Assembly: GCF_029504745.1 (NCBI RefSeq)
Contig: NZ_JAQFIQ010000016.1
Span: 1 to 32,000 of the forward strand
Source of the DNA: Breznakia sp. PF5-3
Lineage (GTDB): Bacteria > Bacillota_I > Bacilli_A > Erysipelotrichales > Erysipelotrichaceae
DNA length: 32,000 bases
Direction of reading: 5' to 3'
The notes beneath the pieces were generated by a model, which saw nothing but the letters and a program-made list of their open reading frames with translations, was not told where the DNA came from and did no database searches. Both the position numbers and the translations under genes were made by a program. Of this stretch, positions 23,707 through 28,051 are shown in pieces; the first letter of the stretch is position 1; each line of letters opens with the position of its first letter.

Positions 23707-25140
23707 ATGATGATAAACATACCAGAAGGGTTTCCCAAAAACTTTTTATGGGGTGGAGCCATAGCAGCAAATCAGGCAGAGGGGGCTTGGGATGTTGAGG
23801 GTAAAGGTCCGTCAATGGCGGATATTGAAGAATTACCATTGGAATATAGTAGAACCAAGGTAGTTGGATTTAAGCATACAAGACAAGAATTAATAACTGC
23901 AAGTAAAGATCTAACAAAATTTTATCCACGACGTAGTGGAATTGATTTTTATCATACATATAAAAATGATTTAGCACTGATGAAGGAAATGGGATTTAAA
24001 TGTTTCCGAACGTCTTTTAATTGGACTCGAATTTTCCCTAATGGGGATGAAGAAGAACCAAATGAAGCAGGATTGAAATATTACGATGATCTCTTAGATG
24101 AAATGATAAAACTGGGAATTGAACCGGTGATGACGATTTCACATTATGAAATGCCAATTCATTTAATTAGTACATATGGAGGTTGGTATTCTAAAAAAGT
24201 ATTAGATTGCTTTATGCGCTTTTGTGAAGTCTTATTTAAACGGTATCACAATAAAGTGAAATATTGGATTGTTTTCAATCAGATTAATTCATTAGGAGGT
24301 TGGGGTGAATTCGCCTCTTTAGGAATGTTGGAAGATGAGTTTGAGGATTGGGAAAGTGCAAAATATCAAGCCACACATCATCAATTAGTAGCAAGTGCGA
24401 AAGCGAAGGAATTAGCAAAAGCAATCAATCCTGAAATGCAAATTGGAATGATGTTGGGTGATGATGCAACATATTATGCTACCTGTGATCCAAAAGATGT
24501 ATTTGCAAACACACAATATATGCAGATGAGTGTATATTTCTATAGTGATGTTTTAATTCATGGAGAATACCCAGGATATGCAAAGCGTTATTTTGTGGAT
24601 AACAATATTCATGTAGAGTTTGATGATGGGGATGAAGAATTATTAAAAAAGAACACAGTTGATTTTTTATCTTTTTCTTACTATCATACAAAAATTAAAA
24701 ATGCAGCAGATAAAGATCCACAACCCAATCCATATCTTGAAAAATCGATTTGGGGTTGGGCAATCGATCCAATTGGATTTAGAAATTCATTGAATCAGTA
24801 TTGGGATCGTTATCATCTACCAATGTTTATTTCGGAAAATGGTTTAGGAGCATTAGATGAAGTGGTGGATGGAGAAATTCATGATGAGTATCGTATTGCT
24901 TATTTGAAAGCACATATTGAGCAAATGAAGGAAGCAATCAAAGATGGTGTTAATGTATTTGGATATGCATCATGGGGACCAATTGATATTATTAGTTGTT
25001 CTCAAGGTGAAATGAGTAAACGCTATGGATATATTTATGTAGATTTAGATGATCGTGGAAATGGTAGTGGTAAGCGAATCAGGAAAGATTCTTTTTACTG
25101 GTATCAAAAAGTAATTAAAACAAATGGAGAAGCATTGTAA
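23707..25140 (+). CDS. GH1 6-phospho-beta-glycosidase paralogue 1 with an atypical active site (acid/base Glu replaced by Gln)
   Basis: [27 protein letters not shown], nucleophile ISENG (GAA 24835-24837), phosphate-binding [11 protein letters not shown]. The strand-4 motif reads FNQIN (CAG 24280-24282) instead of FNEIN. Confidence 0.9.
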
Positions 25141-25151
25141 GGAGGAAGCGA

Positions 25152-26603
25152 ATGAAACAAATGCCAAAAGGATTTCCCAAAGATTTTTTATGGGGAGGAG
25201 CAATTGCTGCGAATCAAGCAGAAGGTGCATATGATGAAGGTGGAAAAGGTTTGTGTGTTGCAGATCTATTAAAAGTACAAGACAAAGGAGATTTACGAAA
25301 AAAGTCTAATAAAGAAACAACGATGAAAGATATTGAATTTGCTTTGAATGATAAGGAAGGATATTATCCAAAGCGTTATGGAATTGATTTCTATCATACA
25401 TATAAAGAAGATTTAAAGTTATTAGCTGGAACGGGAATGAATTCATTTCGTACAAGTATCAACTGGGCTCGTATTTTTCCTAATGGGGATGATGAGAAGC
25501 CAAATGAAGAAGGTTTACAATTTTACGATGATATGATTGATACCATGTTGGAAAATGGTATGGAACCATTGATTACGTTATCTCATTATGAAATGCCACT
25601 TAACATTGCTACGAAATACAAAGGATGGTATTCGCGTGAAACCATTGATATGTTTGTGCGTTATGCGGAAACCGTATTCAAACGTTATAAAGATAAAGTT
25701 AAGTATTGGATTCTTGTGAATCAGATAAATCTGATTCATCACGAATCATTCAATCATTTGGGGATTCCTGCTGATAGTGTTGAAAACTTGTGGGAAGCAA
25801 AATTTCAAGGTGTTCATAACGAATGTACAGCAAGTGCGATTGCAACGAAGATTGGACATGAAATTAATCCAGAATTCCAAATTGGAATGATGGTGTATGA
25901 TGGCTTGAGTGAGCCGTTAACTTGTAGCCCAGAAGATGTTTTCGCTACTATGAAGCGCAATCAGATGGAATATTTCTTTAGTGATTTATTAATGCGTGGT
26001 GAATACCCTGGATATGCAATTCGTTTCTTTGAAGAAAAAGGTTTTAATTTAGATATTCGTGAAGAAGATTTGAAAGTATTAAAGGAAAATACAGCTGATT
26101 TCTTTTCAATTTCGTACTATTATACAATTTGCTCTTCTGCAGAAAGTATGAAAGAGTATGGAGTTAATGAAGATGGAGCAATTAGCAATCCACATATTGA
26201 TGCAAGTGAGTGGGGTTGGGGTATTGATCCACTAGGAATGAGAACGGTATTGAATTATTATTATGATCGCTATCAAAAGCCAATTATTATTGCAGAAAAT
26301 GGTTTTGGAACGATGGATACGGTAGAAGCAGATGGAAGTATTCATGATGAGCGAAGAATTGCTTATCTTAGTGAACATGTGAAAGCCATGAAAGAAGCAA
26401 TTAAAGATGGTGTAGATGTGATTGGATATTATCCATGGGGACCAATTGATATTGTTTCTTGTTCATCAAGTGAAATGAAAAAACGTTATGGTTTTATTTA
26501 TGTAGATCTTGATGATTATGGAAAAGGCAGTGGTAAGCGAATGATTAAAGATAGTTATTATTGGTATAAAAAAGTTGTTGAAACAAATGGTGAAGAGGTA
26601 TAG
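25152..26603 (+). CDS. GH1 6-phospho-beta-glycosidase paralogue 2 with an atypical active site (acid/base Glu replaced by Gln)
   Basis: Same GH1 motif set, with nucleophile IAENG. The strand-4 motif is VNQIN (CAG 25722-25724). SD AGGAGG. Confidence 0.9.
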
Positions 26604-26614
26604 GAGGAATGAAC

Positions 26615-28051
26615 ATGAAAAAAGTACCAACAGGATTTCCAAAGGATTTTTTATGGGGAGGAGCAGTAGCTGCAAACCAATTAGAAGGAGCATGGGATCA
26701 AGGGGGGAAAGGATGGTGTGTTGCTGATATTAATGAGTTTAGAGATGATGTAGAACTTGATAAAAAGTCAAATACTGAAATTACTACTTCTTATGTAATT
26801 GAAGCAATGAATAGTACAGATCGAATTTTTCCAAAACGTTGGGGTATTGATTTTTATCATACATATAAAGAAGATTTAAAATTGTTAGCAGGGTTAGGTT
26901 TAAAAACATTTAGAACTTCAATTAACTGGGCTCGTATTTTCCCTAATGGTGATGAACAAGAGCCAAATGAAGAAGGATTGAAATTCTATGATGATTTATT
27001 TGATGAAATCATTAAAAATGGCATGGAACCAATGATTACAATGTCACATTATGAAATACCAATTCATCTTACGACACAATATAAAGGTTGGTATTCAAGA
27101 GAAGTGATTGATTTCTTTGTAAGATATGGAAAAGTAATATTAGATCGTTATCATACAAAAGTAAAAAAATGGATTGTAGTAAATCAAATTAATCTGATTG
27201 TTCATGAATCATTTAATCATTTAGGAATTGCTGAGGATAAAGTTGATGACTTACTATCTGCAAAGTATCAAGGAGTTCATAATGAGATGGTAGCTAGTGC
27301 ATTGATTACAAAATATGCGCATGAGCATTATCCAGATAATGAAATTGGAATGATGTTGTGTGGAGGACCATCTTATGCTGCTACATGTAAATCAGATGAT
27401 GTATTAGCTACGATAAAAGTGAATCAAATGGAATACTTCTATGCAGATGTATTGTTGAGAGGTTATTATCCAGGATATGCTTTCCGTTATTTTGAAGATA
27501 AAGGAATTCATGTAAAATTCTATGATGGAGATGAAGAAGCATTAAAAAATACAGCAGACTTTATGTCATTCTCTTATTACTATACACAAATTTGTGATAA
27601 AGATTCTTATGATAAGGATGAGGGACCACGTAGAAATAAAGAGTTGGATGCAAATCCATGGGGCTGGTCAATTGATCCAAATGGGCTTCGAATTTTATTG
27701 AATGAATTTTATGATCGTTACCAATGTCCTATTTATATTACAGAAAATGGTGTTGGATACTTTGATAAGTTAGAAGATGGAAAAATCCATGATCCTTATC
27801 GTGTAGATTATTATCGCGATCATATCAAAGCGATGAAGGAAGCAATCAAAGATGGTGTTGATTTAAGAGGATACTATGCTTGGGGACCAATTGATATTGT
27901 TTCTTGTTCATCAAGTGAAATGAGTAAACGTTATGGATTTATCTATGTTGATATTGATGACTATGGTAAAGGTAGTGGAGATAGAATTAAGAAAGATAGT
28001 TATGCATGGATGCAAAAAGTAATTGCATCAAATGGTGAAGATTTAGATTAA
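26615..28051 (+). CDS. GH1 6-phospho-beta-glycosidase paralogue 3 with an atypical active site (acid/base Glu replaced by Gln)
   Basis: Same GH1 motif set, with nucleophile ITENG. The strand-4 motif is VNQIN (CAA 27185-27187). SD AGGAGG (26602-26607) fits the ATG at 26615 better than the tracked 26609. Confidence 0.9.

Follow-up and report, generated by a model that had tools for sequence, protein, structure and literature searches.

Three tandem genes of glycoside hydrolase family 1 (GH1), which we call G1, G2 and G3, carry Gln where the catalytic acid/base Glu of the family should stand, and they belong to a widespread bacterial clade in which this Gln is invariant. The genes lie in a 32,000-nucleotide stretch of DNA from Breznakia sp. 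PF5-3 (contig NZ_JAQFIQ010000016.1, positions 1 to 32,000), hereafter the window, and they follow the genes of a phosphotransferase system (PTS). GH1 is the textbook family of two-glutamate retaining glycosidases, and plant myrosinase is, to our knowledge, its only well-known natural exception at the acid/base site. From the comparisons below we give a cautious preference to reading G1-G3 as active, PTS-coupled retaining phospho-beta-glucosidases of a monophyletic Gln clade whose acid/base catalysis may have been re-wired; the reading is plausible and tentative. The three genes and their Gln codons are as follows.

23707 to 25140, + strand: G1, GH1 phospho-beta-glucosidase homologue, 477 amino acids, with Gln192, loop Glu201 and nucleophile Glu377
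25152 to 26603, + strand: G2, GH1 homologue, 483 amino acids, with Gln191, loop Glu198, Glu273 and nucleophile Glu382
26609 to 28051, + strand: G3, GH1 homologue, 480 amino acids, with Gln193, loop Glu200, Glu275 and nucleophile Glu379
24280 to 24282, + strand: CAG, Gln192 of G1, replacing the catalytic acid/base Glu
25722 to 25724, + strand: CAG, Gln191 of G2, replacing the acid/base Glu and aligned under the Glu of 6wgd, 8ysv and 3qom
27185 to 27187, + strand: CAA, Gln193 of G3, replacing the acid/base Glu

All three open reading frames (ORFs) are intact and stand in tandem on the + strand, and the Pfam profile Glyco_hydro_1 (PF00232) covers them end to end (profile positions 3-452/453, E-values of 3e-115 to 4e-118). 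G2 and G3 are the closest pair with 62.8% identity, against 57.4% for G1/G3 and 53.4% for G1/G2; that these two look closest had been noticed by eye in an earlier note on this DNA, made from the sequence alone. The same note had located the three Gln codons exactly and had described the other GH1 hallmarks as intact, and every motif it quoted was found in the translations: FLWGGA(I/V)AANQxEG, FRTS(F/I)NW, SHYE(M/I)P, the nucleophile motif (S/A/T)ENG and S..(K/S)KRYG(F/Y)IYVD. The nucleophile motif, at the end of beta7, reads ISENG in G1, IAENG in G2 and ITENG in G3. In a phmmer search against all sequences of the Protein Data Bank (PDB), the best matches were bacterial 6-phospho-beta-glucosidases (6wgd with an E-value of 2.6e-158, then 8ysv, 3qom, 4ipl, 3pn8 and 2xhy), and the E-values against the solved enzymes ranged from 1e-137 to 3e-158. 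An AlphaFold2 model of G3, with a predicted local distance difference test score (pLDDT) of 95.4, is predicted to share the fold of these enzymes, with template modelling (TM) scores of 0.89-0.96 at 42-47% identity and 6wgd as the best match. The four NCBIfam models of 6-phospho-beta-glucosidase subfamilies give G1-G3 449-546 bits (best scores of the three proteins, 541, 546 and 513 bits), all under the cut-offs of 623-686.

To describe the acid/base site across the clade, we compared 263 unique Gln-clade sequences with 153 sequences carrying Glu at this site (Glu-type); residue numbers of clade-wide positions follow G2. The segment vnqin of G2 aligns with fnein of 6wgd, 8ysv and 3qom (kywmtfNEinm), and the flanks are identical. 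The Glu of N-E-P or N-E-I at the end of beta4, by which GH1 is recognized, is absent from G1-G3 and from 263/263 clade members. A misalignment hiding a real Glu was considered and ruled out by the phmmer alignments to three solved enzymes and by TM scores above 0.9 for the G3 model. Because this confident model superposes on 6-phospho-beta-glucosidases with TM scores of 0.91-0.96, the canonical position is truly Gln and not shifted. We saw no sign that Gln is common among characterized 6-phospho-beta-glucosidases, since 6wgd, 8ysv and 3qom all have Glu, and for the L. plantarum and S. mutans enzymes of solved structure a catalytic Glu is reported (PMC3605045; PMC10360150 for Lp_3525). By profile, fold and nucleophile, G1-G3 are GH1 members, the acid/base residue being the exception.

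The remainder of the active site points to phosphorylated glucosides. In L. plantarum Pbg1 (3QOM), Ser432, Lys438 and Tyr440 bind the 6-phosphate (PMC3605045), and this triad of loop L8a aligns with Ser438, Lys444 and Tyr446 of G2. Gluco-type enzymes are marked by Ser instead of Asn in the FSYY motif and by a small residue instead of Trp at the Ala431 position (PMC10360150); Ser321 is found in 263/263 Gln-clade members and position 437 is never Trp. We also observed that position 437 of G2 (26460-26462, equivalent to Pbg1 Ala431), which belongs to the glycone/phosphate site, is Cys in 242, Ala in 15 and Ser in 6 of the 263 members, while the equivalent residue is Trp in 6-phospho-beta-galactosidases and mostly Ala in the Glu-type sequences. 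We compared G1-G3 with the bacterial 6-phospho-beta-glucosidases (EC 3.2.1.86) of B. licheniformis (6WGD), E. faecalis (8YSV), L. plantarum (Pbg1, 3QOM), S. mutans (Bgl, 3PN8/4F79), S. pneumoniae (BglA-2, 4IPL/4IPN) and E. coli (BglA, 2XHY). They resemble these enzymes in the fold, the nucleophile motif, the PTS-linked operon, the -1 residues Gln22, His145, Asn190 and Trp429, the Ser/Lys/Tyr 6-phosphate site and Ser321, which is typical of gluco-specific enzymes. They differ in the Gln replacing the acid/base Glu, the NCBIfam scores under the cut-offs, a set of clade-specific residues, a loop carboxylate, a Glu or Gln at the position of an aglycone-binding Arg of Pbg1, and the link to a divergent Lac-family PTS. 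By fold, nucleophile, phosphate triad and gluco-type determinants, G1-G3 would be assigned to EC 3.2.1.86; by the acid/base Glu and the curated NCBIfam cut-offs, they would not.

Within the sample, Gln occupies the acid/base position in 263/263 clade members and Glu in 153/153 Glu-type sequences. The nucleophile Glu, Arg100, His145, Gln22, Tyr323, Asn193 and Ser321 are conserved in all 263 clade members, as are Ser436, Lys444 and Tyr446 of the 6-phosphate site, and the clade has specific residues of its own, namely Leu203 (263/263), Thr83, Thr101, Asn104, Met246 and Cys437. An equation of Met246 with Cys241, a +1 residue of S. mutans (PMC3605045), was dropped when the numbering proved uncertain on checking. 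The best 120 homologues of G3, the most widely spread type, are 76-95% identical and all read N-Q-I-N followed by H-E-S-F-N; their hosts are Breznakia, Enterococcus gallinarum, Dielma, Hungatella hathewayi, Enterocloster and Clostridium saccharoperbutylacetonicum. For G1, the best 120 homologues (63-87% identity) have N-Q in all 117 in which the motif was found and come from Anaerorhabdus, Amedibacillus, Anaerocolumna, Kineothrix, Clostridium innocuum and Coriobacterium glomerans. An exhaustive search with G2 of representatives clustered at 50% identity returned few Gln-type clusters, all others being Glu-type. When each species was represented by one genome, the 16 loci nearest to G1-G3 (~50% identity or more) were all Gln-type and the other 64 all Glu-type. 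A neighbour-joining tree of 121 sequences placed all 40 Gln-type proteins in one clade inside the 6-phospho-beta-glucosidase branch, and the 23 Gln-type genes of the related loci that we fetched use CAG 14 times and CAA 9 times.

As judged from these alignments, the change to Gln happened once, long ago, and purifying selection has preserved it in an active site that is fully maintained in all other respects. This bears out the earlier note, which had taken the Gln for a selected trait: the Gln is invariant, and the nucleophile, glycone and phosphate sites are 100% conserved. A single G-to-C substitution suffices to turn Glu into Gln, so that sequencing error, recent inactivation or pseudogenes could be imagined; the intact ORFs, the two different codons in three independent genes and the invariant Gln in 263 homologues from many genera and assemblies make this explanation vanishingly improbable, and we rejected it. 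The clade is common in gut bacteria (Enterococcus gallinarum, Hungatella, Enterocloster, Clostridium innocuum, Collinsella, Dielma and Breznakia), and its proteins are named 'glycoside hydrolase family 1 protein' or '6-phospho-beta-glucosidase' in the databases. Full-text literature searches found no paper on the clade or on any bacterial phospho-glucosidase of GH1 whose acid/base residue is Gln.

Upstream of G1, the window holds genes for PTS components and for a divergent regulator.

19577 to 21493, - strand: regulator with HTH_11/Mga, two PRD regions and an EIIA-2 domain, of the PTS-controlled activator type (Pfam; NCBIfam AcpB/EbpR/MafR family)
21680 to 21994, + strand: PTS enzyme IIB (EIIB), lactose/cellobiose family (NCBIfam TIGR00853, 67 bits, under its cut-off of 110)
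22032 to 23291, + strand: PTS EIIC, lactose/cellobiose family (Pfam PTS_EIIC)
23313 to 23651, + strand: PTS EIIA, lactose/cellobiose family (Pfam PTS_IIA, E-value 3e-29)

The EIIC is divergent from the named subfamilies (155 bits with the NCBIfam cellobiose IIC model, whose cut-off is 434). In other genomes, Gln-type GH1 genes likewise stand almost always behind a Lac/cellobiose-type PTS IIB-IIC-IIA and a divergent Mga/PRD regulator. An IIC homologous to that of the window (26-68% identity) is directly upstream of nearly all of them, whereas most Glu-type loci in the sample have no homologue of the window EIIC nearby. The same divergent regulator was found in the Gln-clade cassettes L001-L006, L087 and L089. 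The module of regulator, IIB, IIC, IIA and Gln-type GH1 recurs in E. gallinarum, Coriobacterium glomerans, C. innocuum and Breznakia pachnodae, and in H. hathewayi with HPr in addition. The loci L001-L005, whose neighbouring genes were all read, have no glycosidase behind the PTS other than the Gln-type GH1, which is also the only GH1 in L007-L010, L012, L014, L015 and L020-L022. Since it is often the sole glycosidase of its cassette, it would have to be the enzyme that cleaves the imported phosphorylated glucoside, and would thus be active. The closest named relative, B. pachnodae (L087/L088, JAUSUR010000001.1 809224-830660), has its cassette at a different chromosomal site, with only two GH1 genes, one G1-like (64% to G1) and one G3-like (94% to G3), and without G2 and the YczE-like genes that follow G3 in the window, implying that copy number and location of the cassette vary within the genus Breznakia.

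In the mechanism that we favour, a beta-glucoside would be imported and phosphorylated at O6 by the Lac-family IIB/IIC/IIA proteins, its 6-phosphoglucosyl part would be held by the fully conserved -1 and phosphate sites, and Glu377 of G1, Glu382 of G2 or Glu379 of G3 would form the covalent glycosyl-enzyme. The Gln at beta4 would contribute only hydrogen bonding or the positioning of water, and proton transfer to the leaving group, activation of water or both would come fully or partly from a carboxylate in the beta4-alpha4 loop, which is part of the +1 (aglycone) subsite and so suitably placed. The outcome would be an acidic or neutral aglycone pocket and a set of substrates unlike that of ordinary 6-phospho-beta-glucosidases, and the three paralogues may serve different aglycones. 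The Gln at the acid/base site, the conservation of the other catalytic and binding residues, the monophyly of the clade, its PTS linkage and the enrichment of the loop carboxylate are observed; the proton transfer by the loop carboxylate and the substrate are inferred. The candidate carboxylates are the following.

24307 to 24309, + strand: GAA, Glu201 of G1 (WGEF) in the beta4-alpha4 loop, candidate substitute carboxylate
25743 to 25745, + strand: GAA, Glu198 of G2 (HHESF), loop carboxylate
27206 to 27208, + strand: GAA, Glu200 of G3 (VHESF), loop carboxylate, with HESFN in all 120 best homologues

An Asp or Glu is found in the core of this loop in 258/263 Gln-clade sequences (98%), compared with 32/153 Glu-type sequences (21%). 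The earlier note had proposed a relocated catalytic Glu 4-6 residues after NQIN in all three proteins. The spacing is right for G2 and G3, where the Glu is the fifth residue (Gln+7), and wrong for G1, where it is the seventh (Gln+9). As for the relocation itself, the enrichment of a loop carboxylate in the clade lends it real but indirect comparative support, with the caveats that the position is not fixed, that some Glu-type enzymes have the residue too and that one subclade is without it. Several observations weigh against our preferred mechanism. The position of the carboxylate varies: it is Gln+7 for the G2 and G3 types but Gln+9 for the G1 type, where in a few homologues an Asp stands elsewhere in the loop. 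Such shifting is unusual for a precise catalytic residue. About one fifth of the Glu-type enzymes also have a loop Asp or Glu (HEPF in L034 and L044, FES in L. plantarum Pbg1), and binding of the aglycone may be all that the loop residue serves. Given that the clade arose only once, the correlation between Gln and loop carboxylate amounts to effectively one evolutionary event followed by retention. A search of the clade-wide positions for a fixed relocated acid found no acidic, His or Tyr residue, the specific residues being Thr, Asn, Leu, Met and Cys.

The loop carboxylate is missing from five Gln-clade proteins, all of a single subclade with the motif N-Q-V-N...V-Q-F; in this subclade Gln stands not only at the acid/base site but also at the positions of the loop carboxylate and of the aglycone Arg. 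In L006, L016, L019 and L089-L092, this subclade is paired with a Glu-type GH1 (T-I-N-E-Q-S) in the same PTS cassette; L017, which also carries an NQVN protein, ends at a contig edge and was left out of the pairing count. Pairs with coordinates are as follows.

L006, 17417-20799: NQVN protein with Glu-type GH1
L016, 6419-9443: NQVN protein with Glu-type GH1
L019, 6496-9440: NQVN protein with Glu-type GH1
L089, 5539-8452: NQVN protein with Glu-type GH1

The Gln-clade types with a loop carboxylate stand alone, and this is the pattern expected if the loop carboxylate matters for catalysis. The pairing suggests either a two-enzyme arrangement or an accessory, possibly non-catalytic, partner. The loss of one catalytic residue is a known mark of non-catalytic relatives in other glycoside hydrolase families and of Klotho, and the whole clade might by analogy consist of pseudo-enzymes or very slow enzymes that bind 6-phospho-beta-glucosides for sensing or sequestration and leave hydrolysis to others. 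Such an accessory role could fit the NQVN subclade, which has a Glu-type GH1 beside it in every cassette with readable neighbours. For the clade at large we regard this as very unlikely, because all 263 sequences retain the nucleophile Glu together with its Arg and Tyr partners, residues that binding proteins usually let drift, and because the phosphorylated glucoside would accumulate uncleaved in the many cassettes in which the Gln-type enzyme is the sole GH1.

The aglycone pocket gives further clues to the substrate. The alignment of G2 to Pbg1 can be taken as valid because nine known active-site residues map correctly. Arg267 of Pbg1 binds the aglycone by a hydrogen bond to the +1 glucose (PMC3605045), and two codons of the window correspond to it.

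25968 to 25970, + strand: GAA, Glu273 of G2, aligned with Pbg1 Arg267
27431 to 27433, + strand: GAA, Glu275 of G3, homologous to G2 Glu273 and Pbg1 Arg267

The residue is Glu in G2, in G3 and in 120/120 G3-type homologues, Gln in several other lineages of the clade and variable in the G1 type. With this Glu and the loop Glu, the +1 site of G2 and G3 is predicted to be acidic, which would make it ill-suited to the sulfated aglycone of a glucosinolate or to a departing carboxylate; an aglycone that is a sugar, a polyol or a cation would be compatible with it. Our comparison of clade-specific positions found no basic residue specific to the Gln clade.

These features bear on the comparison with plant myrosinase (EC 3.2.1.147). 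Myrosinase is a retaining GH1 enzyme in which, as in G1-G3, the acid/base residue is Gln and the nucleophile is preserved, and it illustrates that a GH1 enzyme works without the acid/base Glu when the leaving group is good. In the Sinapis enzyme, Arg194 and Arg259 are the basic residues of the aglycone site that bind the sulfate of the glucosinolate. The Gln clade differs in that the glycone is 6-phosphorylated, to be held by the Ser/Lys/Tyr site, and is not plain glucose, and in that its lack of a specific basic residue, the Glu or Gln at the aglycone-Arg position and the loop Glu point away from sulfate binding. Since the clade is nested among bacterial 6-phospho-beta-glucosidases, the change is convergent with that in myrosinase and unrelated by descent, and among the 50 best structural matches of the G3 model, all bacterial or ancestral GH1, there was no myrosinase. 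G1-G3 are not members of the plant myrosinases.

A mechanism like that of myrosinase has nonetheless to be weighed. It would dispense with a protein acid catalyst and act on PTS-imported beta-glucosides whose aglycones leave unprotonated, such as thio-glucosides (glucosinolates), 1-O-acyl glucose esters and strongly activated aryl or cationic aglycones; the Gln would position the hydrolytic water, and the base might be a small molecule or a product anion. The Gln is exactly at the acid/base position with everything else intact, as in the plant enzyme, and the bacteria that carry the clade inhabit the guts of insects and mammals that feed on plants. A PTS with a GH1 6-phospho-beta-glucosidase confers degradation of sinigrin on Companilactobacillus farciminis (PMC8660893), an example of glucosinolate catabolism that depends on a PTS. 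The C. farciminis proteins CfPttS/CfPbgS are similar to the system described here in that the PTS imports a glucoside and a GH1 phospho-beta-glucosidase cleaves it in the cytoplasm (PMC8660893), and they differ in having a fused IIBCA of the beta-glucoside (Glc) family, not Lac-family IIB/IIC/IIA; the C. farciminis GH1 is 48-50% identical to E. coli BglA/AscB (PMC8660893). The earlier note's expectation that an enzyme without the acid/base residue would be poor on disaccharide-6-phosphates fits the title of PDB entry 4zfm, the complex of Gan1D-E170Q with cellobiose-6-phosphate, in which the mutant appears unable to turn the substrate over.

Against such a mechanism stand the lack of a clade-specific basic residue, the acidic pocket of G2 and G3, which should repel sulfate or carboxylate leaving groups, and the absence from the cassettes of any aglycone-handling gene other than occasional DUF6198 membrane proteins. 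Moreover, L. plantarum has eleven Glu-type GH1 enzymes, every one a 6-phospho-beta-glucosidase and eight of them with 6-phospho-thioglucosidase activity as well (PMC10360150), so the Gln is not needed for thio-glycosides. We therefore consider a myrosinase-like mechanism doubtful and worth keeping in view. As a guide to substrates, the myrosinase analogy of the earlier note is not supported, given the nesting of the clade among bacterial 6-phospho-beta-glucosidases, the lack of a specific basic residue, the acidic G2/G3 pocket and the thioglucosidase activity of Glu-type L. plantarum enzymes. The analogy holds for the chemistry of a missing acid, and not as a prediction of substrate or of family membership.

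Chemically, the closest analogue of the Gln clade is the set of engineered GH1 acid/base mutants. Such mutants are used for substrate trapping or for reactions with activated donors; when the acid/base residue of a retaining glycosidase is mutated, anions restore activity and the enzyme can act as a thioglycoligase. In Gan1D, E170 is the acid/base residue. Gan1D-E170Q (4ZE5/4ZFM), BglA E166Q (8IVY) and the thioglycoligases carry the same Glu-to-Gln change at the same position; unlike these, the clade acquired its Gln naturally and long ago, purifying selection maintains it, and changes around the +1 subsite are conserved along with it. The behaviour of the mutants raises the thought that the clade might not hydrolyse at all and might pass the 6-phosphoglucosyl group to an acceptor, yielding beta-glucose 1,6-bisphosphate with phosphate (phosphorolysis) or a transglycosylation product with others. 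The nucleophile and -1 site are strictly conserved while a general base for water is absent, and removal of the negative charge at the acid/base position would ease transfer to an anionic acceptor. In one GH3 enzyme, phosphorylase activity goes together with the loss of the acid/base carboxylate. We saw no beta-phosphoglucomutase or other product-using gene in the cassettes examined, the first step would still need departure of the leaving group, and the acidic +1 pocket of G2 and G3 is uninviting for phosphate; transfer in place of hydrolysis is thus improbable.

Whichever route the chemistry takes, G1-G3 represent a natural and widespread bacterial GH1 lineage without the canonical acid/base residue, convergent with myrosinase, and by its sequence the Gln clade must do its chemistry differently. 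That its reaction is new for PTS-linked GH1 enzymes, be it the cleavage of 6-phospho-glycosides needing no acid (S-, acyl- or cationic N-linked dietary compounds) or 6-phosphoglucosyl transfer, is a possibility that we consider doubtful. A second independent and strictly conserved exception would mean either a new catalytic arrangement in GH1, with a displaced acid/base, or an unassigned class of PTS-imported substrates. Because the clade is annotated as ordinary 6-phospho-beta-glucosidase or generic GH1, metabolic reconstructions may mis-assign it. If the reaction is indeed new, thousands of '6-phospho-beta-glucosidase' genes of gut Firmicutes and Coriobacteriia would represent a new catabolic route for unrecognized beta-glucosides. 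Natural GH1 scaffolds without the acid/base residue are also possible starting points for thioglycoligases or transglycosidases.

Downstream of G3, the window holds two related membrane protein genes and a hairpin, and similar genes occur in relatives.

28054 to 28653, + strand: first YczE/DUF6198-like membrane protein (NCBIfam YczE, E-value 1.5e-21, under the cut-off)
28720 to 29319, + strand: second YczE/DUF6198-like membrane protein, 60% identical to the first
28645 to 28668, + strand: terminator-like hairpin with T-run, overlapping the end of the first YczE-like gene (consensus scan only)
L006, 11437-12075 and 18933-19241: YczE/DUF6198-like genes
L011, 1554-2168: YczE/DUF6198-like gene
L016, 9592-10212: YczE/DUF6198-like gene

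The intergenic gaps are 11 bases between G1 and G2, 5 between G2 and G3, and 2 between G3 and the first YczE-like gene, which is probably co-transcribed with G3 because it starts 2 bases past the G3 stop codon. The hairpin at 28645-28668 is a possible end of the operon. Homologues of the YczE/DUF6198-like proteins (~200 amino acids) adjoin Gln-type GH1 genes in 3/22 loci screened (L001-L022), in addition to the window, and none was found in 64 Glu-type loci. The association with Gln-type GH1 is real but sparse, and a putative role as aglycone exporter is a guess. At the other end of the cassette, in the leader between the divergent regulator and EIIB, the consensus scan matched a long AT-rich hairpin of 16 pairs (21553-21589), which could be a regulatory stem.

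Some ORFs of the window have no Pfam match, namely the adjacent + strand ORFs at 11189-12634 and 12644-13063 (481 and 139 amino acids; E-value threshold 0.001) and the two flanking the PTS island at 18898-19443 (- strand, 181 amino acids) and 30966-31868 (+ strand, 300 amino acids). The region 4660-10418 encodes an AddB-like PD-(D/E)XK nuclease (877 amino acids) followed by an AddA-like UvrD helicase (1041 amino acids). Elsewhere the window holds fumarate hydratase subunits, malic enzyme, CutC, MatE and an NAD(P)HX repair gene, and the genes flanking the cassette form an ordinary chromosomal context.

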